From Candidatus Bipolaricaulota bacterium (GTDB lineage: Bacteria; Bipolaricaulota; Bipolaricaulia; M55B111): a DNA stretch of 64,000 bases. Of this stretch, positions 16,584-40,017 are shown in pieces. The position numbers and the translations under genes are program-made. The stretch spans positions 11,468-75,467 of the forward strand of contig JAGYME010000004.1 in the NCBI GenBank assembly GCA_018400715.1. Reading direction: 5' to 3'. The notes beneath the pieces were generated by a model that saw only the letters and a list, made by a program, of their open reading frames with translations, searched no databases and was not told the origin of the DNA. Position 1 is the stretch's first letter; every line of letters begins with the position of its first letter.

Positions 16584-17802
16584 ATCTATATGAACCCCCC
16601 TCAACTGATTCAAGTTTACCAGGTACGTCTGCTACGTCCAACTCTCCGACGGTAAGGTCACAACCCAGATTTCCACTGAGTGAAGGTAGGCTCCTGTGAC
16701 CCTCCGAGGTAATTAATTCTTTGATATAAAGTCCGCTCTCAGCCCAGAGATAAACTTCGTAATTCCGGTCTCCGGCCCTCCTTCCGCTGGCGCCGAACAC
16801 CCGCCTGACTCTAACGAGGTCTGATCTTCTATGGGCAACTCTGGTCGGTGTTCGTTGAAATATCCTTCCCTGAATTTTCCGTAAGCCCTCCGCGAAATCA
16901 TCTGCGCCTATCTCGACTTCTGAGTCTACGAGGGCCCGATATATCTTATCGGGTTTAGCGCTCTTGATCGCTTCGACCGCTCCCTTCGCGACGATTCTTA
17001 AGTTTCTGATCTCAAGATCTTCGGACTTTTTGGTCTCCTCCTTGAGGTCATTTAGATCAAGGCTCCGGATTCTCGGTTCTCGTAACTCCACGACGAACGG
17101 TCGCCCTCCGCCAAGGCATAGGACGTCCACGTCCTCCCTTCCCCCTCCGTGAAAGACGGACGATTCCGAGCGGCTAAGGGACCGGGCGGGCGAAGAGATT
17201 ATCTCTTCGACGGAATTGGAGTAACCCATCTCCGGCCAGTCCGTCTGTGGGATCCCCCGGGTGAGTTTTCGATATCTACCGTAGACGTAGACGGGGCGGA
17301 GTTCAATTTCGATTCGGTCGTTTTCGAAGTCCAGGAGTACGGTCAAATCAGGAGTATCGAAGTCCGCCTCGACCGTTATTCCCCTCTCCGCCAGGTTATC
17401 CCTGAAGCGTTTCCCCAGGGCGCGGTTGACGGCGTGGCTGAAGTCCTCTGCGTTCTTGAGGTTATATTTCTCCTCCAGACTTTCCTGGTTCCGTTTCACC
17501 ACTCTCCTTAACCTGGTGCCAAACAGGAAGGTGGAGAATTCGTAACCCTCAACCGTCTCTATAGTCCTTTCTACCCAGGAGTCGAGGTCCGAGCAGAGGC
17601 CAAAGCATATATTGCAACTATCGTCCTCCACGATCGGTTTATCCATGACCATCCCCGCGACGGTCCTCAGGGATTTCCCCCGCTCCCTGTTGGTTAGCCC
17701 GTGGCTTAGCTCCCCGAAGAGCCTTCCCAGGCAGCTGTCACAAATTTCGTGGTCCTCCAGGATCCTTGCTGCAGTTGAAACTACGTCGGGCTCTTTGCTC
17801 AT
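16534..17802 (-). CDS. pus10: tRNA pseudouridine(54/55) synthase, Pus10 family (archaeal type)
   Basis: N-terminal CDSCLGR..C..C, THUMP-like region, [47 protein letters not shown]; ATG 17802 after AAGGAGG. Confidence 0.9.
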
Positions 17803-17956
17803 ACCTGCCTCCTTATATAGGTCGTTATTCCGCACCGAACAGAAGATATTACTAAATATCTGGGCCCTTTTATACCGGGTTGAGTTAGCTTTGACGATCT
17901 TGAGTCGGCATTGTTTGTCCTGGGGGAGTCGGAAGGGAAACCTACGGGTTTATTGC

Positions 17957-21890: not shown

Positions 21891-23090
21891 TTATATGGCG
21901 TTGACGAGGTCTTCTTTCCTGAAGCATTCCTTCCGCTCGACAAGCTTCCTGGCCTGTTTCTTTTTACCCCAGACGCCGAGCAGGAGGACACCACGGACTT
22001 TTCCTTCCTCGGAGAGATAGTAGACTACGCCCTTCTTTCCCTCCTCTTTCCAGTCGATAAAGGTATCAAGATGGGAATCTACGTCTCCCAGGGCTTCGAA
22101 GCCAAAGTCAAACAGGTCGGAGTAAAAGTAAGGTATGTAGTCGTAAGGTTTCTCCGCCCCGGCCATGTTCTCTCCGGCCAACTTGCCCTGTTTAATTGCG
22201 TTATCCCAGTGTTCGACTCGGACGCAGTCCTCGAGGGCGGCATAAGGAAAATAGGCGTTGTCGCCAGCAGCGTAGACGTCCGGACAGGAAGTCTCCAGGT
22301 GTTCGTCTACTTCGATCCCTTCGAATACGTCGAACTCTCCCTCTTCACATAGATCCACCCCCGGTTTCATACCTATTCCGGCGATAACGAGGTCGCCCGT
22401 TACCGTCGATCCTTCTTCCGTGGTCAGAGAATACTCGTCTTCCGGTTTGGTTATTTTTTCGGGTAGTTCCTCGGAGTATATTTCTATCCCCCTCTCCCGG
22501 TAGTCGTCCTCCACGGCGCGTGATAACTCTTCGGGGAATACCTTCTCAAGAAGATGCTTATCGGGAAATACCATTGAGACATCGATGTGGTTTAGATTCA
22601 GCGCGGCCGCGATCTCGGAACCGATGAATCCTCCGCCAATGACAATTGCGCTTTCTCCCGACTCCATCTCGGCTCTAAGTCGTTTGTAGTCTTCGAGGTT
22701 GCGGTAATAGAGTATTCCTTCCAGGTCTCCACCCGCGACCTCCAGTCTCCTGGGGTGGCCCCCCGTCGCCAGGAGCAACTTCCCGTACTCGTAACTTTCT
22801 CCAGAATCGGATAGGGCCGTCTTTTCATCTGGGTGAACTTCCGTTATCTTACTTCCCAGTTTTGTTTCCACTCCTTGGTCCTCGTAAAAGTCCTCATCCT
22901 CGACGAATACGTCCTCCAGTTCCTTTCTCCCAATCAACAGCTCCTTGGATAAGGGAGGTCGGTTGTAAGGGAGGTAGTTTTCCTCGCTGACTAGGAGGAT
23001 TGAGCCTTCACTATCTCGATCTCTAACCCCTTTGACCCCTGACACTCCGGCCAGGCCTCCACCTACAATTACGTAATCAAAGTATTCCAT
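21891..23090 (-). CDS. FAD/NAD(P)H oxidoreductase, ferredoxin-reductase-like
   Basis: VGGGLAG, PYNRPPLSK, LLLATG, IGGGFIGSE, YAAGD, RVEHWDNA, PYFYSD. Confidence 0.9.
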   Translation of the reverse strand: MEYFDYVIVGGGLAGVSGVKGVRDRDSEGSILLVSEENYLPYNRPPLSKELLIGRKELEDVFVEDEDFYEDQGVETKLGSKITEVHPDEKTALSDSGESYEYGKLLLATGGHPRRLEVAGGDLEGILYYRNLEDYKRLRAEMESGESAIVIGGGFIGSEIAAALNLNHIDVSMVFPDKHLLEKVFPEELSRAVEDDYRERGIEIYSEELPEKITKPEDEYSLTTEEGSTVTGDLVIAGIGMKPGVDLCEEGEFDVFEGIEVDEHLETSCPDVYAAGDNAYFPYAALEDCVRVEHWDNAIKQGKLAGENMAGAEKPYDYIPYFYSDLFDFGFEALGDVDSHLDTFIDWKEEGKKGVVYYLSEEGKVRGVLLLGVWGKKKQARKLVERKECFRKEDLVNAI

Positions 23091-24924: not shown

Positions 24925-24952
24925 ATTATAAGGGGTTTTCGCCCACGTACAA
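24925..24952 (-). promoter_or_regulatory. Putative promoter of the cysQ-ZIP operon
   Basis: Minus strand TTGTAC-N16-TATAAT. Confidence 0.5.
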
Positions 24953-25130
24953 TTTTTTCTCCGCTGGAAGACCGAATTGTTTGGAAAAGGTCTCGAGTCC
25001 TCCTAGTAATCGAACTATTTGCGGTTGGTCCCGGCGACGCGGAGACAAAACTGAATCTACTGGACGTAGCAAAGCTTGATGGTGCCTTTCGGCGAAATGG
25101 AATTGGCTTCTTACCGGGGTTTTTATTTTC

Positions 25131-25158
25131 TTGACAAGGTCATGTGTATCCGTATAAT
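25131..25158 (+). promoter_or_regulatory. Promoter of the Mrp-Mbx operon
   Basis: Consensus TTGACA-N16-TATAAT. Confidence 0.75.
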
Positions 25159-25266
25159 GATTGTGAAAAAGATCATATGCACGTAATCGAAACGTTAGGC
25201 TGGCCCTGAACCCTGAATACGAGTACTGGTCGGGCAAAAGGTTAAACTTTTTAAAGGGGCTGCTCT

Positions 25267-25764
25267 TTGAGCAAGGTTAAGAGTTTTTTCTACCTGTTTA
25301 GCGCCTTATTCCTGATATGGATCGGGTTCACGACTACTTTTCAACCTCAGGAATTGGGGCTTGGGCTTATCATTAGCCTATTTCTCTCGACAATTTTCTT
25401 TAAAACCTACGTAGGATTGGGTTTCCCTCCCCTTGGTATAAAACGTTTTCTCTTTGCCCTTATTTACATAATCGTTCTCTTCAAAGAGATAGTGAAGGCG
25501 AACCTGGACGTTGCCTACAGGGCTGTTCACCCCGAGGTGCCCATAAATCCCGGTATCGTCATAATTAACACTGACCTGGAAGGTGACGTTGCCAGGATGG
25601 TGCTGGCCAACTCAATTACGTTGACGCCGGGCACGTTTACCCTGGATGTAATCGGGGATCACCTGTTGATCCACTGGATAAATGTGGAAACGACTTCGAA
25701 GGAAGAGGCGACGGAACTGATAGGAAAGAGGTTCGAGAAGTACCTAAAAATAATTTTCGCCTAA
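25267..25764 (+). CDS. MnhE/MrpE-like subunit (MbxA)
   Basis: ANLDVAYR...PGI...LANSITLTPGT..LD..L.IHWI. Confidence 0.92.
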   Translation: MSKVKSFFYLFSALFLIWIGFTTTFQPQELGLGLIISLFLSTIFFKTYVGLGFPPLGIKRFLFALIYIIVLFKEIVKANLDVAYRAVHPEVPINPGIVIINTDLEGDVARMVLANSITLTPGTFTLDVIGDHLLIHWINVETTSKEEATELIGKRFEKYLKIIFA

Positions 25765-25775
25765 CAGGGGTAAAA

Positions 25776-26033
25776 GTGAACATAGTCACGATATCGTTTC
25801 TGTCGATAATATGTCTGGGGCTTTTCCTCTCCTTTATACGAATGTTGCGGGGGCCGACCCCTCCCGACAGGGCCGTTGCCGTCGATACGATGACGACAAT
25901 GATCGTTGCCACGCTCGTGTTAATCGGCTTCGTTCTTGAGAGGTACGTATATTTAGACGTCGCCCTCGTATACTCCCTCATCTCTTTTGTCGGCTTGGTG
26001 GCCCTGGCAAGGTTTTTGGAGAAGGGGTTTTAA
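25776..26033 (+). CDS. MnhF/MrpF-like subunit (MbxB)
   Basis: RGPTPPDRAVAVD..YLDVALVY. Confidence 0.92.
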   Translation: MNIVTISFLSIICLGLFLSFIRMLRGPTPPDRAVAVDTMTTMIVATLVLIGFVLERYVYLDVALVYSLISFVGLVALARFLEKGF

Positions 26034-26366
26034 ATGTATTATCTGGGGCTCGTAGTCACGGGGGTTGGCGTACTCTTTCTCTGTTTGGGCGGACTCGGGT
26101 TGTTTCGGTTTCCTGACGTCTACAACAGGGTGCAGGCCGGGACTAAGTGTACGACACTGGGGGCTTTTTGCACTATTTTAGGCGTAGGTATCACCCAGCC
26201 AGGTTGGTTCTGGAAGACGTTGATTATCGCTCTGTTTATTCTGGCGACCAACCCTATTTCCAGCCATTCGCTCGGACGGGCCGCGTACAAAAGTGGCACT
26301 GAATTGGCAGAAGAAAGCGTGGTGGATATGGCGGGCGAGTTTGACGATTACAGCGAGGAAGGGTGA
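26034..26366 (+). CDS. MnhG/MrpG-like subunit (MbxC)
   Basis: GLFRFPDVYNR..TK..TLG..TNP.SSH.LGRAAY. Confidence 0.92.
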   Translation: MYYLGLVVTGVGVLFLCLGGLGLFRFPDVYNRVQAGTKCTTLGAFCTILGVGITQPGWFWKTLIIALFILATNPISSHSLGRAAYKSGTELAEESVVDMAGEFDDYSEEG

Positions 26367-26370
26367 TCCC

Positions 26371-26610
26371 ATGATAATAATCGCTACCGTGACCGTATTC
26401 TTTATGCTGGGGGCGGCGGTGAGTATATTCTTCTTTAAGGACTTGATGAACGCCGTAGTAGCTTCGTCGCTGGTTAGCCTAACCGCCACCGTCCTGTTCT
26501 TTCTCCTCCAAGCTCCTGACGTGGCCATGGCAGAAGCGGCCATAGGTGTGGCACTTGTCACCGGGATATTTGTGATCGCAATTAGGAGGACGGAGAGGTT
26601 TGAAAAATGA
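26371..26610 (+). CDS. DUF4040/MrpA-C-terminal-like subunit (MbxD)
   Basis: LLQAPDVAMAEAAIG. Confidence 0.88.
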   Translation: MIIIATVTVFFMLGAAVSIFFFKDLMNAVVASSLVSLTATVLFFLLQAPDVAMAEAAIGVALVTGIFVIAIRRTERFEK

Positions 26611-27311
26611 GGGATATACTGAGTTTCCGTGGGTTTGTTGCGCTATTTTTGCTTGGGATTATCGTTGCGGGTATATCGTCCGCGGTAGGACAGATACCCT
26701 TCGGTCAGCCCGACAGCGAAGTGGGGCAGCTGTACCTTGAGAACGGACTCCAGGATACAGGAGCCCCGAACCTCGTTACGTCGGTAGTGGCTGGTTATAG
26801 AGCCCTCGATACGCTAGGAGAGGTCGTGGTCCTTTTCGTTGCTGCTACCGGGCTTTCGGCGGTACTCGCCACCAGCAAAAGAAGGGTAGAGAGAGAACTA
26901 GAGGACGCAAGTCTCGTTTTAAAAACGGGATGTCGAATCTTTTTCCCCTTGATTCTGTTATTCGGTGCCTACCTGTTTATTCACGGCCATCTCACGCCCG
27001 GAGGAGGTTTCCAGGGTGGGGCGGTTATCGGTTCAGCCTTTTTACTGGTATATCTTGGCTGTAGCGGTAGAAGGGTGTCAGCGGACGCTGCCGGCGCTAT
27101 CGAATCCTTGAGTGGATTTGGGTTCGTCTTTCTTGGACTTCTCGGTCTGTTAGTTGGTGGAAGTTACTTCCTGTCAAATTTCCTCCCGAAGGGCGACCTA
27201 TACGAACTGATCAGCGCTGGAATTTTTCCGCTGATTTACATCCTGATCGGGCTCAAGGTCGGGTCAGAGTTTGCTGGGATTGTCGACAGCATGATCGAGG
27301 AGAGTAAATGA
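26607..27311 (+). CDS. MnhB-like subunit (MbxE/F fusion)
   Basis: NLVTSVVAGYRALDTLGE and HGHLTPGGGFQGG. Confidence 0.9.
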   Translation: MRDILSFRGFVALFLLGIIVAGISSAVGQIPFGQPDSEVGQLYLENGLQDTGAPNLVTSVVAGYRALDTLGEVVVLFVAATGLSAVLATSKRRVERELEDASLVLKTGCRIFFPLILLFGAYLFIHGHLTPGGGFQGGAVIGSAFLLVYLGCSGRRVSADAAGAIESLSGFGFVFLGLLGLLVGGSYFLSNFLPKGDLYELISAGIFPLIYILIGLKVGSEFAGIVDSMIEESK

Positions 27312-27670
27312 TCTTCCTATCTGAGTACATTTACTATATCGGGGCGATCGGCCTAATCTTTATCGGCCTGCTCATTGTCCTGGTAAAACGGAACCTGATA
27401 AAGGTCGTCATTGGGATTAACGTTCTCGATACCGGAGTGAACCTGTTTTTGATTTCGTCCGGCTATCTAAAAGGTGGTACGGCACCGATTTACTCCCCAG
27501 GGTCCGACGCCGCTCCGTCCACGATGGTCGATCCGGTGCCCCAGGCCCTCGTCCTCACGGCCATAGTTATCGGAGCCAGCGTCCTTGCTCTAGCCCTGTC
27601 ACTAGGGATAAAGCTCTACGACCATTACGAAACGCTTGATCTAGAGGAAATAAGGGGGCAGAGATGGTAA
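27308..27670 (+). CDS. MnhC/MrpC-like subunit (MbxG)
   Basis: NLIK..G.NLF..DPVPQALVLTAIVIG. Confidence 0.92.
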   Translation: MIFLSEYIYYIGAIGLIFIGLLIVLVKRNLIKVVIGINVLDTGVNLFLISSGYLKGGTAPIYSPGSDAAPSTMVDPVPQALVLTAIVIGASVLALALSLGIKLYDHYETLDLEEIRGQRW

Positions 27671-29142
27671 ACCCGGCCCTGTTGTTGGCGGTCCCGCTCG
27701 CGCTCGCTTTTTTAATCCCTCTCGTCCGCTTGGTGGCCAGGGGAGTAGTCAAGTGGATCCCCGTCTTCGCCATGGCGTTCAACTTCATAGCGTCCGTCCT
27801 TATCATACCGCGTGCCCTCGAAGAAGCGATAGTTACGGAGATTGGTGGTTTTCCAGCACCCTTCTGTATAAACCTCGTTGCGGGGCCGCTGGGCTCAATC
27901 CTATCTTCTTTTATCGCCCTGATTGGCTTGCTCGTGGCGATATATTCGTTTGACTACCTGAGGGAGGTCCCGACGGCCAAGTACTATACGATGTACCTCC
28001 TACTTTTGACCGGCGCGACAGGAATTGTCCTCACGGGAGATATTTTTAATCTGTTTGTCTTTTTCGAGATCCTCTGTATATCCTCCTACTCTTTAGTTGC
28101 CTACCAGGGGAATAAAGCCGGGATTGAGGCCTCGGTCAAGTACCTGGTCCAGGGCTCGATTGGATCCAGCCTGCTTCTTCTAGGAATTGGCCTAATCTAC
28201 GGTCAGTACGGGACGCTCAATATGGGAGACCTTGCGGGTAAAATTGAAGGAATCAGTTCCCCATCGGCCTTTGTCCCCCTGGTATTGATGATTACCGGCC
28301 TTGGTGTAGAAGCCGCAATATTTCCGTTGAACGCGTGGCTGCCCGATGCTCACTCGTCCGCACCTTCGTCGATCAGTGCCGTGCTGTCAGGCGTTGCTAT
28401 TGGTGTTGGCCTCTATTCGATAGCTAGAATCCTTTTTACCGTTTTTGGCGGGACGGCCCTCCTCGAAACGCTTGCCGTAATCGGACTATTGACGCTGCTT
28501 GTGGGAGAATTATCCGCACTTAGCCAGGACGATGTCAAAAGGTTGCTGGCGTATTCCAGCATCGGTCAAATGGGGCTTATCGCCTTTGGGCTTGGCCTTG
28601 CGACTGGCGAGGGAGTGACAGGTGGTTTATTCCAACTGCTATCTCACGGTTTGTCCAAGGCCCTGTTGTTTCTATCCGTCGGATACATGATCTACCGGTC
28701 CGGTTCGAAGAAGATTTCGGACCTGCAGGGCTCGTGGAAGAGGACGCCGGTGGCGTCTCTCGGGTTTGCGGTTGGGGCGTTCTCCCTGGTAGGCCTTCCG
28801 CCGTTTATTGGGTTCCCTGGAAAGTTCTTGATAGTCCGCTCCGCCCTCCTCAAAGGGGAGTTGTTTTACACGGTATTGGTTGCATTTGTTTTATTTGCCA
28901 CGGTCGTGGAAGGTGGGTACTTCTTCAGGGTTGTCCAAATTATCTTCTTCAAAGGAACTGGAGGGAGACGGCTGAAGAGGGAGGTCGCTCCGGTCTCGGG
29001 GCTGATCCCTCTGGTTGTGTTAATGCTTTTGATCTTGATTGTCGGCGTATATCCCGGCCTGATTACTGGTTTAATTGATTCCGCGGCAGCTGAGCTTACC
29101 GCCCGGTCGAGTTACTTCACCCTTGTCATGGGGTCTACCTGA
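27664..29142 (+). CDS. MnhD/MrpD antiporter-like subunit (MbxH)
   Basis: TGDIFNLFVFFEI, KY, PLNAWLPDAHSSAP, KRLLAYSS, GLPPFIGFPGK. Confidence 0.92.
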   Translation: MVNPALLLAVPLALAFLIPLVRLVARGVVKWIPVFAMAFNFIASVLIIPRALEEAIVTEIGGFPAPFCINLVAGPLGSILSSFIALIGLLVAIYSFDYLREVPTAKYYTMYLLLLTGATGIVLTGDIFNLFVFFEILCISSYSLVAYQGNKAGIEASVKYLVQGSIGSSLLLLGIGLIYGQYGTLNMGDLAGKIEGISSPSAFVPLVLMITGLGVEAAIFPLNAWLPDAHSSAPSSISAVLSGVAIGVGLYSIARILFTVFGGTALLETLAVIGLLTLLVGELSALSQDDVKRLLAYSSIGQMGLIAFGLGLATGEGVTGGLFQLLSHGLSKALLFLSVGYMIYRSGSKKISDLQGSWKRTPVASLGFAVGAFSLVGLPPFIGFPGKFLIVRSALLKGELFYTVLVAFVLFATVVEGGYFFRVVQIIFFKGTGGRRLKREVAPVSGLIPLVVLMLLILIVGVYPGLITGLIDSAAAELTARSSYFTLVMGST

Positions 29143-29190
29143 TGGCTCCCGGCGGGTGGAGGGGAGGTTAACGATGGAGGAAAGAAAGTC

Positions 29191-31044
29191 ATGTTAGAAG
29201 CGATATTGGTCGTCGCCTTTGGCGGCGCCCTCGTCTCCTATTTCCTGGGACGGTGGACATCTAGAATAAGAGATTATTTTGCCCTTGGCGTCTGGATAGC
29301 TATCCTGGGGATGACCTCTTATCTCCATCAAATTGAGCCGAAAATTAGTACCTTCTATCCCGGATTCCTCGGATACGACTTAAGTCTTCGGATTACGTCG
29401 TTGTCCTGGTTGTTCGCAGTCACGGTCGCTGCGGTGAGCGTTCTGGTTATTATATACTCATTCCGCTATATCAAGGGCCACGAAAAGAGAAACCTTTTCT
29501 ATTTCCTCCTCCTGCTTGTTAACGGAGGAATGATGGGTATCACCCTGAGTGGTGACCTGCTCTCGTTCTACATATTCTGGGAGATCGCCTCGTGGAGTAC
29601 CTTTCTGTTGATATCGTTTAACAGAGGAAAGGCACTTCCCGCAGGCCTGCGATACGTAGTGATGTCGGTAATTGGTTCTGCTGCTATGCTGGTTGCGACT
29701 CTATCTCTCTACAGCAGTTACGGTACCCTCGCGCTATCCGATTTATCTACCCACCTTGCGACGGCCGGTGGGGGGTACGTAATATTTATTTTTCTCCTGT
29801 TCTTCGTAAGTTTTGGGGTCAAGAACGCAATCGTCCCGTTTCACACGTGGCTCCCCCCGGCGCACTCCGAGGCGCCGGCACCTTTTTCGGCCGTTCTGTC
29901 CGGCCTGTTGGTCAAGATGGGGACATATGGACTCATCTTAATATTCTATCTCATAGCTGGGATGAAGATATTTCTGGGTCTGGGGACGGGAATATGGAGT
30001 TTTCACTACATAATTTCCGCGCTAGCGGGGGTTACGATCGTGGTGCCAAGTTTCATAGCGGTACTGCAGGACGACGCGAAGAAGACCCTCGCCTGGTCAA
30101 CTGTAGGGCAGGCAGGATATATCGTGTTGGGTGTCTCCTTCGGGACGGGACTTGCTCTGGCCGCGGGTATCTTCCATTTTTTAAATCACGCGATGTTCAA
30201 ATCGCTGTTGTTCATGTCGATCGGTACGGTTGAGAGGAAGACATCTACTCGAGACCTCAACGAACTGGGCGGGCTGGTCAAGAGGACCCCCGTACTGTTT
30301 GTCGTTACACTCGTTGGGGCAGCGGGGTTAATTGGTATTCCCCTGACAAACGGTTTCTTTTCCAAGTGGATGCTGTATAAGACGTTGATTTTGGAGGGAA
30401 ATCCGTTTTTGGCCTTCGCTGCCCTGGTCGGTACCTGGGGGACTGTTCTCTACTCGTATAGGTTGATCCACAACGTCTTTTTCGGTCAGTTACCGGAAAA
30501 ATACAGGGACGTTACGCGGACGTCCTTTAGCACTTACCTTCCCATGGTTATCCTGTCGATAGCAATCGTATTCTTCGGGGTCTTCCCCGGTTTCCTCCTC
30601 GGCGAGATTAACGTCGTCACTACTTCTCTGGGGTTTACTCCTTTGGACGTCCAGCTGTGGGGAATATCCTCTGATAGCGGGACCGTAAATACGTTGAATA
30701 TCCTTGCTGCTTTAGCAGTAGTTGGTGTGATGGTCTGGTATCTGTTCCGGTCATCAGCCGAGACCACGGAGGTCTCCCAGGAGGACAGTTATACTGCCGG
30801 GGCTCCCGTTCCTCAGGGCAGGTTTACGTACACGGCCGATTTTTACCGACCGCTGGAAAAGATCATTCGTCCTTACCTGAAGGACAGAATCGAGGACTTC
30901 TACGGGATGCTGGTGGGTTTCGTTGGAGTTCTCTCTGATACCGTTAGGAGAATCTATACGGGTTACGTGGGAACCTACGTCGCCTACATTTTGGCGTTGT
31001 TGGCCGCGGTTCTATTGGTTCAGTTGGGGTGGAAACCATGGTAG
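29191..31044 (+). CDS. Second antiporter-like subunit (MbxH', NuoL/M-like)
   Basis: DLLSFYIFWE, PFHTWLPPAHSEAP, KKTLAWST, HAMFKSLLF, GIPLTNGFFSKW. Confidence 0.9.
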   Translation: MLEAILVVAFGGALVSYFLGRWTSRIRDYFALGVWIAILGMTSYLHQIEPKISTFYPGFLGYDLSLRITSLSWLFAVTVAAVSVLVIIYSFRYIKGHEKRNLFYFLLLLVNGGMMGITLSGDLLSFYIFWEIASWSTFLLISFNRGKALPAGLRYVVMSVIGSAAMLVATLSLYSSYGTLALSDLSTHLATAGGGYVIFIFLLFFVSFGVKNAIVPFHTWLPPAHSEAPAPFSAVLSGLLVKMGTYGLILIFYLIAGMKIFLGLGTGIWSFHYIISALAGVTIVVPSFIAVLQDDAKKTLAWSTVGQAGYIVLGVSFGTGLALAAGIFHFLNHAMFKSLLFMSIGTVERKTSTRDLNELGGLVKRTPVLFVVTLVGAAGLIGIPLTNGFFSKWMLYKTLILEGNPFLAFAALVGTWGTVLYSYRLIHNVFFGQLPEKYRDVTRTSFSTYLPMVILSIAIVFFGVFPGFLLGEINVVTTSLGFTPLDVQLWGISSDSGTVNTLNILAALAVVGVMVWYLFRSSAETTEVSQEDSYTAGAPVPQGRFTYTADFYRPLEKIIRPYLKDRIEDFYGMLVGFVGVLSDTVRRIYTGYVGTYVAYILALLAAVLLVQLGWKPW

Positions 31045-31979
31045 GGATGAAGATAGCGGGAATAATCTTTTCTCCGATTATCGGGGTTATTACCGGCTTA
31101 TTGCTAACCGGGGCGGCGAGGAAGATGGTTGCCAGGGTTGAATGGCGCTACGGACCGCCCATTCTTCAACCGGTCATAGACCTTATAAAGCTGTTCTTTC
31201 AGCGGCCACCTTCCCACGGGAAGACCTTCGACTACGGACTAATCGCCTCCCTCGCTGGCTCCATTGTGCTTGTCCTGTTCTTGCCCGTTGGCCGTCTCTG
31301 TCCCTTAAGTGAAGGAGGAGGGTTGTTGCTTATCACCTACCTTATCCTGATAGGTCCGCTTGGTATGGCTCTTTCCGGTGGGGAGGGGGCAAACCCGTAC
31401 GTCAGCATAGGGATTTCCCGGAAACTAATTCTCAGTTTGGGTTACGAGGTTACGCTCCTTCTGATCCTCCTGTCAGTTATGTCGGAGTACGACACGATAT
31501 CGATATTTAACGTGGTCAGGGCCCAAAGCGAGAACGGCTGGTCACTCTTCTCCTGGCCCCTGGTTATTCCCGGCCTCGCCTATCTCCTTATTTTGCCCGC
31601 GATCCTCGGGGTTAAGCCATTTGACGTGGCCTCTGCCCCTCAGGAGATATCTTCGGGACCGCACGTGGAATACGGGGGTAAGTACCTCGCGCTGAGTAAG
31701 CTCGAGGGTGGTCTTTCCGAATTTATCGGAATTGCTCTCTTTGTAAACCTGTTTCTTGGCGGTTGGAGCATCCCCGGGAGTCTTCACCTTCCTGCTGGGG
31801 TGCTCGGCGTCTTTTTGGGCGTTCTCGTATTTTTAGCCAAAGTTGCCTTCGTCTTTTCCCTTAACGTGACCGTCAGCGCGTCCTTTCCGAGGCTGAGGGT
31901 AGAACAGGCGGTTAAGTATTTATGGAGTTGGCCTGCGTTTATCGGGCTTGTCGGTCTGATAATCGTCTCGGCCCTGTGA
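31038..31979 (+). CDS. NuoH-like subunit (MbxM)
   Basis: RYGPPILQP..D.IKL, PFDV..A.QEI..G..VEY.G, FPRLR.EQ. Confidence 0.92.
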   Translation: MVGMKIAGIIFSPIIGVITGLLLTGAARKMVARVEWRYGPPILQPVIDLIKLFFQRPPSHGKTFDYGLIASLAGSIVLVLFLPVGRLCPLSEGGGLLLITYLILIGPLGMALSGGEGANPYVSIGISRKLILSLGYEVTLLLILLSVMSEYDTISIFNVVRAQSENGWSLFSWPLVIPGLAYLLILPAILGVKPFDVASAPQEISSGPHVEYGGKYLALSKLEGGLSEFIGIALFVNLFLGGWSIPGSLHLPAGVLGVFLGVLVFLAKVAFVFSLNVTVSASFPRLRVEQAVKYLWSWPAFIGLVGLIIVSAL

Positions 31980-32003
31980 GTATCATTCCGGGAGGGATAT
32001 CGT

Positions 32004-32567
32004 ATGGATAGACGTCAACTCATTAAATGGCTCAAAGAGCCGTTGAAGATGAGCAACAAGTATTCCCTTCACGTGGTGTACTTCTGTACCGGATGCGGAA
32101 TTATTGAGATACCACCGTCCATCACGGCGAGGTGGGATGCGGAGCGGTTTGGAGTAAAGCCCGTTGCCACCCCTAGACAGGCAAATTTATTCCTAATAAC
32201 CGGTTACGTCTCGCTGAAGACGTTAAAGCCAATTATAAGGACGTACGAACAGATGCCGGCCCCGAAATATACCGTTGCCTTCGGTTCCTGTCCAATAGAC
32301 GGGGGAATGTACTGGGATTCGTACAATACGATAAATCACCTCGACAAGTACATCCCGATCGACGGTTACATCGCGGGTTGCATGCCGAGGCCGGAGGCAG
32401 TGTTTGCGGGGATAACCCACCTCTGGACCTTAATTGACGAGGGCAAGGCCGATGGTTATAAGAAATACCGCAGGAACTATTCGCAGTATAGATCGAATCA
32501 AGAAAGGCTGTACGGGGAACTGGGGTGGCCACCGAGGTTTGAAACGGAGGGACTGGAGAATGAGTAG
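32004..32567 (+). CDS. NuoB-like Fe-S subunit (MbxJ)
   Basis: FCTGCGIIE, TPRQA, GSCPIDGG, YIAGCMPRPE. Confidence 0.93.
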   Translation: MDRRQLIKWLKEPLKMSNKYSLHVVYFCTGCGIIEIPPSITARWDAERFGVKPVATPRQANLFLITGYVSLKTLKPIIRTYEQMPAPKYTVAFGSCPIDGGMYWDSYNTINHLDKYIPIDGYIAGCMPRPEAVFAGITHLWTLIDEGKADGYKKYRRNYSQYRSNQERLYGELGWPPRFETEGLENE

Positions 32568-33057
32568 CATAGAGGAAAAAATCACCGCTAATTTTGATGG
32601 AATCGAGGTCCGGAAGATCGAGGAGGGCCGGATCGAAGTTAAGACGAAGAAGGAAGCATTGCTCTCGACCTTGAACTTTCTTAAAGACGAAGGATACGGC
32701 CATCTCGGGCTCGTCTCCTGCGTCGACAGGATAGAAGAGGGGATATTCGAATTGGTCTACATCCTCTCGAGATATTTGGTAGGAGGTGAAGTGGCGGTTG
32801 ACCAGGCGTCCTTGATTGTCAAGACCGAGGTGCCCCGGGGGAATCCGACCCTCGTCACGTCGGTCAAGGTATTTGAAACCGCCGAGCCCTATGAGAGAGA
32901 ACTTCACGAGATGTTCGGAATAGTCTTTTCAGGCCATCCCAGGTTAACGCCATTGTTCCTGGAGAGGGATATCGATCTCCCGCCGATGAGAAAGGACTTC
33001 GATACAAGAAAATATGTGGAAGAGGAGTTCGAATCAATTCCCCCGGTGGAGGATTGA
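32560..33057 (+). CDS. NuoC-like subunit (MbxK)
   Basis: YERELHEMFGIVFSGHP.L, P.RKDF; ATG 32560. Confidence 0.9.
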   Translation: MSSIEEKITANFDGIEVRKIEEGRIEVKTKKEALLSTLNFLKDEGYGHLGLVSCVDRIEEGIFELVYILSRYLVGGEVAVDQASLIVKTEVPRGNPTLVTSVKVFETAEPYERELHEMFGIVFSGHPRLTPLFLERDIDLPPMRKDFDTRKYVEEEFESIPPVED

Positions 33058-34193
33058 CCATGGAAATAATTAGCGAGAAGAAGAAGGGCGGGTCCTCACG
33101 GGAACTAGAACTATACTTTGGACCTCAGCATCTGGGTATGATTGGTAATTTTAGTATCACGTTAAACGTCCGGGGTGACCGAATCGTCCGCGCGGAGGCG
33201 AACCCGGGATACCTGCACAGGGGTTTCGAAAAACTCATGGAGGGACGTAGCTGGATACAAAACTTCCCCCTCGTGTGCCGAGTCAACGTGATCGAACCCG
33301 GTTCAATGGAGATGGTATACTCTACCGCGGTTGAGAACCTTGCGGGGGTCAAGGTGCCACCGAGAGGTAAGTACATCAGGTGTATTTACCTGGAGCTTTC
33401 CCGGATAGCCTCTCACCTGTTCGGTCTCTGGGCTTACTCCAAAACCCTCGGGTTTGAGACGGTGGGGGGATGGGCTATGTATCACCGCGATCTGATACTG
33501 GATCTCTTCGAAGAACTTACAGGGGGCAGGGTATATAACATATACATCTGGCCCGGCGGTGTACGGAGGGACCTGCCGGAGGGGTTTGAAGAGAGAACAA
33601 AAGATGTCCTTCACGAGATCGGCGAGAAGGTACCGGATTACAATCAAACCTTCTTTGAGAACAGGTTGTTCCACGAGAGGGCTCGTGGGGTTGGAGTCGT
33701 GAGTCGAGAGGAGGCGATGAATACCGGGGGCACCGGGCAGGTCCTCCGAGCTACGGGTCTGGAATACGATATCCGTAAGGTTGAGCCCTATGGTGTTTAC
33801 GACGAGATCGATTGGGACGTCCCCACTCGAGAGGACGGGGATGCTTACTCGCGGATAATGGTGGTCCGCGACGAGATGATAGAGAGCGTTCACGCGATCT
33901 TTAAACTCTTCGATAAGTTGCCGGGTGGGCCCGTCTATAACAAGATACCGAACCCATTTAAATGGAATATCCCAGAAGGAGAGACCTACGTGCGGTTGGA
34001 GTCCTCCCGCGGTGAACTGGGGCTCTATCTCGCCTCGGATGGAGGGCGAAAGCCTTACCGTGCGCATTTCAGAACCCCTTCTTACCCCCACGGGTTGACG
34101 ATCCTGGAGAAGGCGTTGGCGGGGGAAAGCATCTCCGATACGGGTAATATCATGATAAGTCTGTACGTGACAGCACCAGAGATAGACAGGTAA
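33054..34193 (+). CDS. NuoD-like subunit (MbxL) without NiFe-binding motifs
   Basis: FGPQH, GYLHRGFEKL, ELSRIASHL, GGVRRD, ESSRGE; no RxCGxC or DPCxxC; ends VTAPEIDR. Confidence 0.92.
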   Translation: MTMEIISEKKKGGSSRELELYFGPQHLGMIGNFSITLNVRGDRIVRAEANPGYLHRGFEKLMEGRSWIQNFPLVCRVNVIEPGSMEMVYSTAVENLAGVKVPPRGKYIRCIYLELSRIASHLFGLWAYSKTLGFETVGGWAMYHRDLILDLFEELTGGRVYNIYIWPGGVRRDLPEGFEERTKDVLHEIGEKVPDYNQTFFENRLFHERARGVGVVSREEAMNTGGTGQVLRATGLEYDIRKVEPYGVYDEIDWDVPTREDGDAYSRIMVVRDEMIESVHAIFKLFDKLPGGPVYNKIPNPFKWNIPEGETYVRLESSRGELGLYLASDGGRKPYRAHFRTPSYPHGLTILEKALAGESISDTGNIMISLYVTAPEIDR

Positions 34194-34208
34194 GGAGGTA
34201 AGGACGAC

Positions 34209-36071
34209 ATGAGCGGCAAGAGGCCGAGCATATTAAACTCGCTGGGCGCGGGCAAGTACCTGTTTAGAAGGCCGAAGACGATAAAATACCCGTTTGAGTT
34301 GAAGGAACCCGCGCCCCGCTACAGGGGGTTCCACCTTAACGACTGGGATGCCTGTACTGGATGTGGTAATTGCGAGGACATATGCCCGAACGAGGCAATT
34401 GAGATGGTGGAGGTCCCGGAACTAGAAGAGGCCCCCGAAGAAGGAAGAACGAATTTGAGGCCCCAAATAAACTACGGCAGGTGCTGCTTCTGCGGACTTT
34501 GTGTAGACGTTTGTCCTGCCGGAGCCTTGAGGCTTTCCAGGGACTATCTCCATATCCACTTTGACACGGATACTTTTACCTTCATCCCGAAGGACCAAAA
34601 AAGTGCCGGAGAAAAGTTCCTTCCCGAAGAAGAATATTCCGTACTTAAGGCGAATCTGGACCATAGAAGACAAGATTACGAGGGCTTTAGCCAGGACCTG
34701 GACTTCTCGCTCTTCAGGCTTGATAGGGTCCCGATGCCCCAGGTCCCTCCCGAAGAGAGGAAACTATCCTTCATCGAGCAGGTGATCGGGTATACAAAAG
34801 AAGAGGCCAAGGGAGAGGCAGAGAGGTGCCTGGAATGCGGTCTTTGTGAGGACGCGTGCCCGGCGGGTTTAAATATTGTCGATTACGTAGGGGCGATATA
34901 TGAGGACGACCCTGATGAGTCGCTCAGACAGATCTTTAAGGACAACCCCCTGCCGTCAATATGTGGTCGGGTATGCATGAAGCACTGCGAGGATGCCTGC
35001 TCGCTTGGAAAACAAGGAGACCCGGTCGCCATCAGGTGGCTAAAGAGGTGGACGGCCGATTCTATTGAGGATTACAAGCGCTCGCTCGAACTTACCCCCG
35101 GGGAGGATAAAGGAAAAAAGGTAGGAATAGTCGGGGCCGGACCATCGGGCCTATCTTTGGCCTACTTTCTCAGGCTGAAGGGATACGGGGTAACCGTGTT
35201 TGACTCCCTCCCGGGGGCTGGTGGAGCGACTCGGATCGGCCCCCCGCAGTACCGCCTGCCCCTGGACGCAATAGAAAAGGACGTCAATTATATCGCCTCT
35301 CTCGGCGTCGAGTTCAGATTTTGCACTACCGTGGGGGAAGACGTTAGTTTCGAGGAGATAAGAGATGTTTACGACGCGGCTTACCTCGCCGTCGGAAACT
35401 CTGACCCTCTTTCTACTGGGATTGAAAACGCGGACAAGGCTCATCTCGCCCTCGACTTTCTCCGGAGTAATAAAATCGGTGAGGGAGTAGAGGTCGGGCG
35501 GGAGGTAGTTGTCATTGGTGGGGGAAACGTAGCCATGGACGCCGCCCGGGAAGCGTTGAGGCTGCAGCACATGCAACATCCGGAGACCTCCGTGGTGACT
35601 AAGACTGTGTCTCTGGAGGACTGGGATGAGCTTCCGGCGACGGGCGAGGAGGTGGAAGAGGCACGGGAGGAAGGTATTCAATTCAACCCCGCCTGGGGAC
35701 CAAAGAAGATCGAAGTGGACGGAGATGGGCGAGTAAAGGGACTGCTGTGTACGAAGGTTAAATCGGTCTTCGATGAAGATGGACGGTTCAATCCGTCTTT
35801 TGATGAGGACCGAGAAAAGTTTCTGGAAGGTGACACGATTATCGAGGCAATCGGGCAGAAACCCGACTTCTCATTCATATCTGAAGAAACCTTTGGAAAG
35901 TTGGAATTTACAGAACGGCGGAAGGTTAGAGTTAACGAAAACGGAATGACGAGTCTACCCGGCGTCTTCGCAGGTGGTGACATAGTTAATACCAACCTCG
36001 ATGCGGTAACGGCGATCGCCGATGCTAAGGTGGCTAGCGAGGGTATAGATTGCTACCTCTCCGGAAAGTAG
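34209..36071 (+). CDS. NuoI-like 2x[4Fe-4S] subunit (MbxN) fused to a GltD/NfnB-like NAD(P)H flavoprotein
   Basis: CTGCGNCEDICP and CCFCGLCVDVCP, then CLECGLC..ACP, CGRVC..CE..C, GAGPSGL, IGGGNVAMD, FAGGD. Confidence 0.9.
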   Translation: MSGKRPSILNSLGAGKYLFRRPKTIKYPFELKEPAPRYRGFHLNDWDACTGCGNCEDICPNEAIEMVEVPELEEAPEEGRTNLRPQINYGRCCFCGLCVDVCPAGALRLSRDYLHIHFDTDTFTFIPKDQKSAGEKFLPEEEYSVLKANLDHRRQDYEGFSQDLDFSLFRLDRVPMPQVPPEERKLSFIEQVIGYTKEEAKGEAERCLECGLCEDACPAGLNIVDYVGAIYEDDPDESLRQIFKDNPLPSICGRVCMKHCEDACSLGKQGDPVAIRWLKRWTADSIEDYKRSLELTPGEDKGKKVGIVGAGPSGLSLAYFLRLKGYGVTVFDSLPGAGGATRIGPPQYRLPLDAIEKDVNYIASLGVEFRFCTTVGEDVSFEEIRDVYDAAYLAVGNSDPLSTGIENADKAHLALDFLRSNKIGEGVEVGREVVVIGGGNVAMDAAREALRLQHMQHPETSVVTKTVSLEDWDELPATGEEVEEAREEGIQFNPAWGPKKIEVDGDGRVKGLLCTKVKSVFDEDGRFNPSFDEDREKFLEGDTIIEAIGQKPDFSFISEETFGKLEFTERRKVRVNENGMTSLPGVFAGGDIVNTNLDAVTAIADAKVASEGIDCYLSGK

Positions 36072-36207: not shown

Positions 36208-36498
36208 ATGCCCTGGGTAAACGATGAATGTAAAGGATGTGGGGTTTGTATTGATGCCTGTCCTGTGGATGCTATCGCAATGAACGATGGAGAAGCGGTA
36301 ATAGATAATGCGACCTGTACGAGATGCGGAGATTGTTTTGAAGCATGCCCCCTTGACGCGATACGGCCTAACTCCGCAAACCCGGATTTGAGGGGTAGAT
36401 TTGACAGAACCGGTCGAGGTAACGGGAGTAGAGGGGGTGGAGGCCGACGAGATGGTAGAGGTAAGGGTAGTCGTGGAGGAAATCGAAGGCAATTTTAA
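36208..36498 (+). CDS. 2x[4Fe-4S] ferredoxin with Arg/Gly-rich tail
   Basis: CKGCGVCIDACP and CTRCGDCFEACP; tail RGNGSRGGGGRRDGRGKGSRGG. Confidence 0.88.
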   Translation: MPWVNDECKGCGVCIDACPVDAIAMNDGEAVIDNATCTRCGDCFEACPLDAIRPNSANPDLRGRFDRTGRGNGSRGGGGRRDGRGKGSRGGNRRQF

Positions 36499-36514
36499 TC
36501 AGGAGGATTATTTG

Positions 36515-36925
36515 ATGAGGTTTATTGTCGCCTGCGGAACGTCAGATGGCGAAAAGTTGACGGATGATCACTTCGGCGAGTCGGAGTACTTTGATATCTA
36601 CGATCTCGATGACTACGAACCGCGGTTTGTCAAAAAGGTCGAGAATGACACGCGGGAAGAGGATGAGGACCTCGGTCACGGGGATCCTGGAAAGGCCAAA
36701 GAGGTGTCTCAGATCCTTAAGGACGAGTCCGTAAACGTAGTTCTTGCCCATCAAATGGGTCCGAATATCGTTAGGATCAGTAAGAGGTTTGTGCCCGTGA
36801 TCTATCGGGGCAGGGAGGTCGACCGGGCGATAGGCCTACTGCTCGACAACATTCATCTCGTTGAACGAGAATGGAGAAAAGGGGAGAAGAGGGAGTACGT
36901 AGTTCTAGAAAATGACCAAGGGTAA
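36515..36925 (+). CDS. NifB/NifX (FeMo-co biosynthesis domain) family protein
   Basis: HFGESEYF, HGDPGKA, MGPN; AGGAGG RBS before ATG 36515. Confidence 0.8.
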   Translation: MRFIVACGTSDGEKLTDDHFGESEYFDIYDLDDYEPRFVKKVENDTREEDEDLGHGDPGKAKEVSQILKDESVNVVLAHQMGPNIVRISKRFVPVIYRGREVDRAIGLLLDNIHLVEREWRKGEKREYVVLENDQG

Positions 36926-38787: not shown

Positions 38788-40017
38788 CTAAGCCCCGAAC
38801 TTTTTCAGCTGATCGCTATACGACAGAGTTATCGGTAGAAGTTGTCCGCTGAAAGTTCCTAGGCCACCGTGCATTGCGGTATATTCGTCGAACATCTCAA
38901 CTTGGTCGGTTTTTACGTTGGGGCCCACAATCATTACCGGTACCGGTTCGGCTACATGGTCTCCGTAGCGAATCGGGGTTGTGTGGTCTCCGGAGAAGGA
39001 GAGGTGTGTTTCGTTCCAGTCAATGTTGTCGTCGAGCCAGGCAAAGGTCTCGTCTATCTTTTCTATGAATTTGACCTTTGCTTCAGCGTTGTGGTCATGT
39101 GAAGCGTTGTCGGTTCCCTTCATGTGAACAAAGACGACGTCCTTCCCTCCCTCCAACTCGCGTATTGCCGCTTTTGCCTTGTTGATGATCTTAGAATCTA
39201 CCGTGCCAGTAGCGCCATCTACCGGTATGTAATCCATCCCAACGACTTTTGCCACTCCTATGTACAGCGCTCCCGCCGCGACGACGGAGGCGGACACCCC
39301 GTAGACCTCTTCTACGGATGGCACGTCCGGGTATTTTGCCGCCCCGCGTGAGAGGATTGCATTTGCAGGCAACTTCCCCTCTTTCCTGCGTTTAACGTTG
39401 ATCGGGGCTGACTCAAGAATCTCTCTTGCCTGGTCGGTGACCTCGTTGAGTACCTCCGCAGTTTTTATAGATTCTTCGTCCAGACCTTTGGCCTGGGGTA
39501 TAGGGACGCCAAGTTCGTGGGGGTCGGTAGGGGTTACGTTCCCTCCTAAATCCTCTCCGGAAATTGACAGCGCCCCCCGATGTTCGGTGCTTGTCTTAAA
39601 CCTTACCTCGACGTCGGGATATTTCTTCGAGGTCAGTTCTGAGAGCGCTTCCTCTAACTCCTCCTGGCCGTCGGAGATCCTGCCCGCGCGCCTGTCGGAA
39701 ATTTTTCCGTCTGAGTCGACCGTCGCGAAGTTGGTTCTAAAACTTACGTCATTTTTCCCGAGGTCCATACCGATGCCGGCGGCTTCGAATACGCCGCGCC
39801 CGGTATAATATTTTTCGGGATCGTAGCCGAAGAGAGACAGGTGTGCGGTATCGCTACCCGGTCTCACCCCTGGTTTGATGGGATGCATTAATCCGGCTGT
39901 CCCGCGGTCAACCAGGCTGTCCAGGGTTGGCGTGTTGGCGACTTCAAGGCACGTTCCCTCTGGAGTATCGTCCGGCCTCCCACCGAGTCCATCTGCGATA
40001 ACCATTATCGTCTTCAT
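38788..40017 (-). CDS. apgM: Cofactor-independent phosphoglycerate mutase, archaeal type
   Basis: IADGLG.RP, PGSDTAHLSLFGYDP, GRG.FEA.G, H.KG.D..SHD, GDHTTP, HVAEPVP. Confidence 0.9.
   Translation of the reverse strand: MKTIMVIADGLGGRPDDTPEGTCLEVANTPTLDSLVDRGTAGLMHPIKPGVRPGSDTAHLSLFGYDPEKYYTGRGVFEAAGIGMDLGKNDVSFRTNFATVDSDGKISDRRAGRISDGQEELEEALSELTSKKYPDVEVRFKTSTEHRGALSISGEDLGGNVTPTDPHELGVPIPQAKGLDEESIKTAEVLNEVTDQAREILESAPINVKRRKEGKLPANAILSRGAAKYPDVPSVEEVYGVSASVVAAGALYIGVAKVVGMDYIPVDGATGTVDSKIINKAKAAIRELEGGKDVVFVHMKGTDNASHDHNAEAKVKFIEKIDETFAWLDDNIDWNETHLSFSGDHTTPIRYGDHVAEPVPVMIVGPNVKTDQVEMFDEYTAMHGGLGTFSGQLLPITLSYSDQLKKFGA

Follow-up and report, generated by a model that had tools for sequence, protein, structure and literature searches.

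A 13-gene MBS/Mbx-family operon in a Bipolaricaulota bacterium represents a widespread bacterial clade with a cysteine-less L subunit and a fused NfnB/GltD-like flavoprotein

The DNA analysed here, a stretch of 64,000 nucleotides that we call the window, comes from Candidatus Bipolaricaulota bacterium (M55B111; assembly GCA_018400715.1, contig JAGYME010000004.1, positions 11,468-75,467 of the forward strand). All positions below are window coordinates, position 1 being the first letter of the stretch. An operon of 13 co-oriented, tightly packed and intact open reading frames (ORFs) occupies 25267-36071 on the plus strand. Genes 1 to 6 match, in this order, the Pfam families MNHE, MrpF_PhaF, PhaG_MnhG, MbhD, MnhB (with MbhE) and Oxidored_q2 (NuoK/MrpC-like). 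They are followed by two antiporter-like genes with Proton_antipo_M (492 amino acids) and Proton_antipo_M plus Proton_antipo_N (617 amino acids), and genes 9 to 13 match NADHdh, Oxidored_q6, Complex1_30kDa, Complex1_49kDa and, in a single protein of 620 amino acids, two Fer4 domains, Fer4_20 and Pyr_redox_2. Intergenic gaps range from -134 to +48 nucleotides if the longest ORF is taken in each case, and the two large overlaps vanish when internal ATG starts are used for D and K. The genes and the two diagnostic motifs of the L subunit, named after the subunits of MBS, the sulfane-reducing complex of Pyrococcus furiosus, are as follows.

25267-25764, plus strand: MbsA/MrpE-like subunit (PF01899 MNHE, E 3e-38)
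25776-26033, plus strand: MbsB/MrpF-like subunit (PF04066, E 4e-20)
26034-26366, plus strand: MbsC/MrpG-like subunit (PF03334, E 6e-25)
26293-26610, plus strand: MbsD (MbhD-type) subunit (PF13244 MbhD, E 2e-17); probable true start ATG 26371, from the translation
26607-27311, plus strand: MbsE, with MbhE and MnhB domains (PF04039, E 2.5e-24; PF20501, E 4e-7)
27308-27670, plus strand: MbsG, NuoK/MrpC-like subunit (PF00420, E 1e-24)
27664-29142, plus strand: MbsH, antiporter-like (MrpD/NuoN-type), 492 amino acids (PF00361, E 4e-63; NCBIfam PRK08377, 438 bits)
29191-31044, plus strand: MbsH', long antiporter-like subunit with C-terminal extension, 617 amino acids (best PDB match 6u8y_X, E 8e-75)
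31029-31979, plus strand: MbsM, NuoH-like membrane anchor (best PDB match 6u8y_M, E 5e-58)
32004-32567, plus strand: MbsJ, NuoB-like, proximal [4Fe-4S] subunit (6u8y_J, E 7e-68; C28, C31, C96 and C126 kept)
32434-33057, plus strand: MbsK, NuoC-like subunit (PF00329, E 7e-28); probable true start ATG 32560, from the translation
33054-34193, plus strand: L subunit (MbsL/NuoD-like) without NiFe ligands (6u8y_L, E 1.9e-98); probable start ATG 33060
33273-33299, plus strand: L clade signature V-C75-R-V-N78-V-I-E-P; N78 replaces MbsL C85, and C75 is a displaced, invariant Cys
34161-34190, plus strand: C-terminal motif of L, L-Y-V-T-A-P-E-I-D-R; T374 replaces MbsL C385, and Y372 replaces the Asp of DNC/DPC
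34209-36071, plus strand: N subunit, a NuoI/MbsN-type part, a linker and an NfnB/GltD-type part (Pfam and PDB alignments)

The L protein is identical to a 377-amino-acid protein on record. A chance origin of the operon can be excluded because the subunits match their families with E-values of 1e-17 to 1e-98 and the same gene order is found in dozens of genomes. The Mbx/MBS-type order, which an original prediction had recognized in this DNA, is thus confirmed by the Pfam series on one strand and by its repetition in related loci. The operon is predicted to encode a respiratory complex of the MBS/Mbx family that is complete in its 13 subunits and looks expressed, with an Mrp-type ion-translocating membrane arm and a NuoH/B/C/D/I-type peripheral arm.

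The L subunit contains neither of the two NiFe-binding motifs, RxCGxC and DPCxxC, and reads CRVNVIE and YVTAPEIDR, whereas representatives of true hydrogenases retrieved in the same search read RVCGIC and DPCxxC. When L was aligned with P. furiosus MbsL by HMMER (6u8y_L), RICVPEP paired with RVNVIEP (encoded at 33279-33299) and DNCPPDIDR with YVTAPEIDR (VTAPEIDR, 34167-34190), so that C85 corresponds to N78 and C385 to T374. The only Cys nearby, C75 of the VCR triplet (33273-33281), lies three residues N-terminal of the MbsL position and not at it. The absence of the hydrogenase motifs and the Asn and Thr at the two MbsL cysteine positions, both part of the original prediction, thus hold with their coordinates. 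A gap-free alignment of the N-terminal part with Thermus thermophilus Nqo4 (2fug_4) places I30 and V79 opposite H38 and Y87, which are the ligands of the quinone headgroup (PMC7684303). Among solved structures MbsL gave the best score (2e-98), ahead of Nqo4 (7e-75) and MbhL (6cfw_L, 2e-40). Due to these replacements, L is not a hydrogenase large subunit, a canonical MbsL or a quinone-binding NuoD.

It would be tempting to read the missing cysteines as a catalytic rewiring, and the original prediction did so on the understanding that MbsL needs both of them. However, published mutants contradict this: the MbsL C85A/C385A enzyme shows wild-type-like reductase activity with DMTS, a model trisulfide, and the MbsJ C25A enzyme likewise reduces it as well as the wild type (PMC7684303). 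The authors of the MBS structure state that the mutated cysteines “are not involved in catalysis”, and they place catalysis at the proximal [4Fe-4S] cluster of MbsJ, one iron of which is not bound by cysteine (PMC7684303). As the double mutant is active in vitro, the cysteine pair is a family hallmark rather than a functional requirement, and its loss is compatible with MBS-type chemistry. With the cluster motif of J also kept (see below), the loss is no evidence of lost or changed catalysis and does not point to a rewiring.

The remaining core subunits resemble MBS closely. Among solved structures, the counterpart in P. furiosus MBS (6U8Y) was the top match for each of L, J, M, H' and the N-terminal region of N. 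J, the subunit closest to MBS (6u8y_J, E 7e-68, versus 1.5e-29 for MbhJ), keeps FCTGCG, GSCP and AGCMPRPE, which align with the cluster ligands C25, C28, C93 and C123 of MbsJ (numbering from PMC7684303). It thus has the hydrogenase-type CxxC (CTGC) where NdhK has SCC, and lacks the tandem CC of complex I. For M the E-values are 5e-58 with 6u8y_M and 3e-23 with MbhM, and residues 57-610 of H' align with 58-614 of MbsH' (6u8y_X, 618 amino acids), including the C-terminal extension.

The last gene encodes a fusion, as had been predicted. Residues 4-114 of N align with MbsN (6u8y_N, E 1e-30) and residues 171-618 with NfnB of P. furiosus and Thermotoga maritima (5jca_L and 4ylf_B, E about 1e-75); the NCBIfam model PRK13984 gives 676 bits, which is under its cut-off of 946. 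The protein is thus laid out as a NuoI/MbsN-type part with two [4Fe-4S] clusters (about residues 1-115), a conserved linker, and an NfnB/GltD-type part (171-620) with two further [4Fe-4S] clusters, FAD and a predicted NAD(P)H site. The 16 cluster cysteines (C49/52/55/59, C92/95/98/102, C207/210/213/217 and C252/256/260/264) form four motifs of the CxxCxxCxxxCP or CxxxCxxxCxxxC type and are all invariant in 80 homologues. Four clusters in N and one on J make a total of five [4Fe-4S] clusters leading from the flavin to the J/L/M interface.

Where the NADPH-dependent NfnB has YRR in its nicotinamide site, N reads TKT, and an insertion of four residues, SLED, comes next (TKTVSLED). This motif is conserved across the clade to which the window operon belongs, and a similar stretch (..V.CLE..) is present in most of the fusion proteins of Thermotogota. 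As a general rule for Rossmann folds, a preference for NAD goes with an acidic residue after strand 2, and a preference for NADP with Arg. Because the Arg-Arg pair of the NADPH type is absent and the acidic SLED stretch is present, we infer that N would prefer NADH. One subclade of Thermotogota (loci L098 and L112; genomes G073 and G072) has a fused N that keeps the NADPH-type VVYRRR; this motif difference suggests a switch of nicotinamide specificity within Thermotogota Mbx.

The original prediction had regarded the loss of the cysteines as the new part. However, it is not peculiar to this DNA. A search of 5.8 billion proteins with L returned 2757 matches, and the top 120 clusters, which we inspected, are 70-100% identical to the query and include sequences labelled Acetothermia/Bipolaricaulota, Planctomycetes, Eisenbacteria and Sumerlaeota. 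All but two match the strict pattern [LMI]VCR[IVM]N[VL][VIF]EP, the MbsL position is never a Cys, and the C-terminus always reads Y..[AP][PS]EIDR. The fusion protein, searched in one genome per species, was found at 80 loci (59-84% identity) in more than 20 phyla. Carriers are Bipolaricaulota, Planctomycetota, Aerophobota, Cloacimonadota, Bacteroidota, Spirochaetota, Bacillota, Thermodesulfobacteriota, Nitrospirota, Actinomycetota, Eisenbacteria, Zixibacteria, KSB1, Fermentibacterota, Sumerlaeota, Omnitrophota, WOR-3, Elusimicrobiota, one metagenome-assembled genome (MAG) of Thermotogota (locus L046, the only such case in that phylum) and one bin labelled Thermoplasmata. The last is an operon fragment on a 4.2-kb contig (DAOVMN010000247.1) assigned to a Thermoplasmata archaeon; its L and N share 75% and 70% identity with the window proteins, and it reflects a transfer between domains or else a mis-binning. 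All related loci with sufficient flanking sequence have the same 13 genes in the same order.

Of 70 L proteins encoded next to the fusion gene, 64 fit the strict VCRxNVxEP pattern and none has a Cys at the MbsL position; the one non-matching L that was read out, from the Thermotogota MAG, has the same C-R-x-N core with D for E. The C-terminal consensus over the 120 clusters and 70 loci is Y[VI][VTAI]APE[IV]DR. When 71 clade members were aligned with 30 relatives that keep the cysteines, all of the former had C75 and N78, and the latter P/L and C at these positions. Across phyla, identity is 73-91% for J, 61-85% for L and 59-84% for N. The nearest clusters outside the clade, in a library of representatives at 50% identity, are only 43-47% identical, and both cysteines are present in all of them. 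The cysteine-less L is thus an invariant signature, as far as these homologues reach, of a large bacterial clade and not a local event.

In a maximum-likelihood tree of L, the window-type sequences form one clade (SH-aLRT 100, stem 0.40) with very short internal branches, the order of which ignores phylum boundaries. With a support of 91, the clade groups with MbsL, with the Thermotogota type and with a few further clusters that keep the cysteines; NuoD and the true hydrogenases are placed elsewhere. This position, together with the Ile and Val at the quinone-ligand positions and the CxxC of J, does not support an intermediate between MBS and complex I, as the complex had been described in the original prediction. 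In the window's own class, only four of 41 genomes have a full-length fusion gene, and one further copy is cut by a contig end. The patchy distribution within the class, the unshared flanks (see below) and the tree argue for a self-contained, horizontally spread operon under strong purifying selection. The clade is thus a real, biochemically uncharacterised variant of the MBS/Mbx family and not a unique rewiring. In the literature searched, we found no published description of the cysteine-less C75/N78 clade (one of the searches was swamped by unrelated acronyms) and no biochemical assay of any bacterial member.

Two sequence features were predicted upstream of the operon:

25131-25158, plus strand: sigma-70-type promoter, TTGACA-16 nt-TATAAT (12 of 12 consensus positions; the best in a 13-kb scan)
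25161-25178, plus strand: weak Rex-like half-palindrome, TTGTGAAAAAGATCATAT (three mismatches to TTGTGAA-N4-TTCACAA; just after the -10 box)

The predicted promoter lies 108 nucleotides upstream of the first operon gene. An ORF of 103 amino acids on the minus strand (24926-25237) encloses it, has no Pfam or other family match and is probably not a gene. Control by Rex was considered, but a pattern search of the window gave no good operator and a looser scan yielded only the half-site with three mismatches, which is at best suggestive; a good Rex-like site was present upstream of only three of 35 related operons (L017, L025 and L043).

Directly downstream, 36401-36925 (plus strand) encodes a small Nitro_FeMo-Co protein similar to NifX and the C-terminal part of NifB. 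The NifX-like gene and an aminotransferase gene are shared downstream only with the closest Bipolaricaulota MAG (L007; 85% identity for the NifX-like protein), and the NifX-like gene is thus considered to lie outside the mobile module. A search for conserved accessory genes gave no downstream family in more than four of 51 loci (upstream flanks were too short for comparison). As the flanking genes are not conserved, the 13 genes appear to be a self-contained module. Two flavoprotein genes nearby, both on the minus strand, are likewise not conserved beside the operon elsewhere: a ferredoxin/rubredoxin-NAD+ reductase-like protein of 399 amino acids (21891-23090; Pyr_redox_2 and AIF_C) and a dihydrolipoyl-dehydrogenase-like protein of 470 amino acids (40047-41459). 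The rest of the window is ordinary chromosome with aminoacyl-tRNA synthetases, LigA, RuvB, UvrB, Obg and a membrane-bound ion-pumping pyrophosphatase (51841-54054, plus strand; H_PPase, 774 bits), a further ion-motive device 16 kb from the operon. Two minus-strand genes have an archaeal flavour. The 433-amino-acid ORF at 16534-17835 contains Pus10_C and an archaeal Pus10 THUMP domain (E 1e-54 and 1e-18); Pus10, a tRNA pseudouridine synthase, is otherwise typical of archaea and eukaryotes, and here it is found in a bacterial chromosome. The gene at 38788-40017 encodes a cofactor-independent phosphoglycerate mutase with the PhosphMutase plus Metalloenzyme (ApgM, archaeal-type) architecture. Contamination or mis-binning of the window could be ruled out by its even G+C content, the housekeeping neighbours and the downstream synteny with the closest Bipolaricaulota MAG.

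The rest of the genome was also searched. With the operon's subunits as queries, tblastn found no second NuoB, NuoD or NuoH; NuoE, NuoF and NuoG were not searched genome-wide. A second Mrp-like cluster (MrpF, MbhD, NuoK-like, MrpD-like) is located on contig C116 (422-3983). On contig C89 (82303-82593, within an ORF of 520 amino acids) there is a [NiFe] hydrogenase large subunit with intact RVCGVC and DPCMAC, so that, next to the NiFe-less complex, the organism possesses a genuine hydrogenase. RnfD/NqrB-family genes occur at two separate loci, which together with a MenA-like prenyltransferase gene are covered by C128:4399-5310, C98:3980-4912 and C98:215-916. The MenA-like protein scores 101.6 bits, at the NCBIfam menA cut-off of 102.15, and its gene is about 3 kb from the RnfD/NqrB-family locus on C98, where an Rnf/Nqr-type complex could be linked to a prenylated cofactor. 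No gene of the MqnA/D family was found in this genome.

The complex may be an NADH-fed, ion-pumping reductase which passes electrons to an acceptor at the proximal cluster, possibly sulfane sulfur, and which acts downstream of Rnf; this is the reading we prefer, and we would give it an even chance. NADH would donate hydride to the FAD in the NfnB/GltD-like part of N, and the electrons would cross five [4Fe-4S] clusters, of which the GltD and NuoI parts contribute two each and J one. At the MbsJ-type proximal cluster, located at the J/L/M interface, they would reduce a membrane-accessible acceptor, which by default of homology would be sulfane sulfur or polysulfide. This reduction would drive the export of H+ or Na+ through H, H' and the Mrp modules, as in MBS and complex I. 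For the cell as a whole, the chain would run from ferredoxin via Rnf to NADH, and from there through the MBS-type complex to the acceptor. In favour of this direction, the proximal-cluster subunit J and the pocket signature of L are conserved more than any other part, which would be needless for a mere transfer of electrons between the NuoI clusters and the flavin; the 100% conservation of C75 and N78, and the fact that J is the most MBS-like subunit, suggest that the J/L/M pocket is still in use. In addition, 46 of 50 carrier genomes have an RnfD/NqrB gene. A replacement of Rnf by the operon would have led to anti-correlation between the two, and the opposite was found. As soft evidence, many titles of the host MAGs name sulfidic anoxic sites (Zodletone, Guaymas, Auka, a sulfidic cave), and mbxA of T. 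maritima responds to S0 by induction (PMC9431562).

Several points weigh against this proposal. The NADH assignment of N comes from the general Rossmann-fold rule. Rnf is common in anaerobes anyway (28 of 41 genomes of the window's class have it), which makes its co-occurrence with the operon weak evidence. Most host lineages are not known as sulfur respirers. From textbook potentials, the standard driving force from NADH to polysulfide is only about 50-60 mV. This span resembles that of the one-pump MBH (12 kJ/mol), but the window complex has the two-pump layout of MBS, for which 41 kJ/mol are available from ferredoxin to polysulfide (PMC8165549). The substitutions in the pocket (C to N, C to T/V and D to Y) may mean that the acceptor is no longer sulfane sulfur, and the NuoI part may still be a docking site for ferredoxin. 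For the clade and for Thermotogota Mbx alike, the donor, the acceptor, the direction and the coupling ion are predictions from gene sequences.

The most serious competitor, though in our opinion a rather doubtful one, is an ion-translocating ferredoxin:NAD(P)+ oxidoreductase, in which ferredoxin would dock on the NuoI part, electrons would leave via the flavoprotein, and Na+ or H+ would be pumped as by Rnf. The free energy from ferredoxin to NAD(P)+ is about 25-35 kJ per two electrons. This span suits a two-pump, MBS-like layout better than the one from NADH to polysulfide (PMC8165549), and the hosts, judging by the titles of their records, are mostly fermentative anaerobes which need to re-oxidize ferredoxin. 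It is also the published annotation: GltD-fused mbx-like operons have been read as ferredoxin:NAD(P)+ oxidoreductases (PMC4758237), and 10.1101/322537, citing Schut 2013, gives the same NAD(P)-linked reading. An NAD(P)-linked complex from such an operon has thus already been described, whereas the original prediction had spoken of an undescribed intermediate. However, electrons taking the route from NuoI to FAD would never reach the proximal cluster and the J/L/M coupling site, and yet the cysteines of J as well as C75 and N78 are kept. Moreover, the activity would be redundant almost everywhere, given the two RnfD loci in this genome and the co-occurrence described above, and for archaeal MBX the same hypothesis has been superseded by sulfane reduction (PMC7684303).

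Three further possibilities have less in their favour. An NADH:menaquinone oxidoreductase, that is, a second, independently evolved “complex I” with the quinone in the C75/N78/Y372 pocket, would follow complex-I logic, leading from an NADH module through an FeS chain into a hydrophobic chamber, which in MBS is as wide as in complex I (PMC7684303). The driving force would be ample, and the MenA-like protein scores at the cut-off in this genome. Nevertheless we consider this quite unlikely, with Ile and Val opposite the Nqo4 ligands, a CxxC instead of the tandem CC in the NuoB-like subunit, and no MqnA/D-family gene in this genome. A MenA-like gene was present in 16 of the 50 carriers, in nine of them above the cut-off, a count subject to MAG incompleteness and the existence of other prenyltransferases; menaquinone as a general acceptor is thus unlikely. 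Flavin-based bifurcation or confurcation, in which the NfnB-like FAD would split or merge electrons between ferredoxin and the acceptor of the membrane arm, is suggested by the closest solved relatives of the flavoprotein part, which are the bifurcating NfnB proteins (5jca_L and 4ylf_B). It appears highly improbable to us: the operon and its surroundings contain no NfnA-like partner or second nicotinamide site, and nothing in the sequence marks a bifurcating flavin. Relatives of the GltD, DPD and SudA type have the same fold without bifurcation. Finally, all four cysteines at the NiFe positions are gone from L, as might be expected of a degenerate relic derived from a hydrogenase or MBS, which would be left without an active site and persist as no more than an Mrp-type antiporter. 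This is barely credible, as conservation is highest in the soluble subunits J, L and N, all cluster ligands of N are invariant, and short internal branches after a long stem are the opposite of decay.

The NADH-fed reductase that we prefer can be taken one step further. As a tentative and doubtful extension, the cysteine-less clade, marked by the invariant C75 and N78, by Tyr instead of the C-terminal Asp and by the fused NADH-type flavoprotein, might be an independently evolved “NADH dehydrogenase complex” which shed its last hydrogenase cysteines and captured an unrelated NADH module of its own, in parallel to complex I, and the acceptor of which, given the remodelled J/L/M pocket, differs from that of archaeal MBS. 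A role of the displaced Cys75 might be to act on the open iron of the proximal cluster or even to serve as its ligand. If this is true, such complexes would form, together with Rnf, a two-site, quinone-free respiratory chain in many uncultured anaerobes.

The clade is among the most widely transferred energy-conserving modules of uncultured anaerobes, and in genome-based metabolic models it has been annotated variously as NADH dehydrogenase, Mbx or ferredoxin:NAD(P)+ oxidoreductase. Its donor, acceptor and coupling ion would alter the predicted ATP yields of many candidate phyla, including Bipolaricaulota, Cloacimonadota, Aerophobota, Planctomycetota, Zixibacteria and Fermentibacteria. It also bears on the question of whether the design of complex I, a nicotinamide module coupled to an Mrp-type pump, arose more than once.

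Among known systems, Rnf has no homology to the window complex; the two would share ferredoxin and NAD as substrates as well as ion coupling only if the ferredoxin:NAD+ reading is right. MBH is a much weaker match than MBS for L (6cfw_L, E 2e-40). The complex fits the definition of Ehr, namely relatives of group 4 hydrogenases with Mrp-like subunits but without Ni/Fe-ligating residues (PMC6349859). However, Ehr is a descriptive umbrella which is silent on function, and the Ehr complexes described from Geobacter and Margulisbacteria have other subunit sets and partners.

With complex I and photosynthetic NDH-1, the window complex shares a homologous H/B/C/D/I core, antiporter-like pumps and a D-type subunit without NiFe cysteines. 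Also like complex I, it would end its FeS chain in a flavoprotein module devoted to the oxidation of nicotinamide. However, a Pfam scan of the operon found no NuoE, NuoF or NuoG genes, and the NADH module has instead an unrelated GltD/NfnB fold with FAD. Other differences are Ile and Val at the positions of H38 and Y87, the CxxC of the NuoB-like subunit where complex I has CC, and a membrane arm of the Mrp type (MrpE/F/G, MbhD/E) with two instead of three antiporter-like subunits. NuoD proteins are only about 35-41% identical to L and lie on the other side of the tree.

The closest characterised system is MBS of P. furiosus, with the same inventory of 13 subunits, the same gene order and the same J motifs (FCTGCG, GSCP and AGC); both complexes are without the quinone ligands of complex I. 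In contrast to MbsL, the window L has Asn and Thr at C85 and C385, a Cys three residues earlier and Tyr for Asp, and N carries a flavoprotein of 450 residues similar to NfnB/GltD that is absent from MbsN. The host is bacterial and not hyperthermophilic.

The closest described architecture is that of Thermotogota Mbx (a cluster of 13 genes in T. maritima and Mesotoga, e.g. Theba_1796-1808), which has the same gene order and a NuoI-GltD fusion as the last gene; most copies also share the non-YRR nucleotide motif of the window type. In a survey of Thermotogota, 85 of 151 genomes had an L homologue, with 43-48% identity. All 29 Thermotogota-type loci that were read have LIPRICVPEP and D.C[PA]P[ED][IF]DR, each followed by the fusion gene, which bears out the statement of the original prediction that Thermotoga Mbx retains both cysteines and that a similar fusion is present in Thermotoga. 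NuoD homologues of mbx-like operons are said to retain vestigial cysteines (PMC4758237), a statement that does not hold for the window-type clade. For T. maritima, mbxA was induced by S0 and a sulfur-reducing role has been proposed (PMC9431562). The Thermotogota complex thus differs from that of the window in an L that keeps both cysteines and in an N that is 39-46% identical, and in the tree its L is separate from the window-type clade and groups with MbsL.

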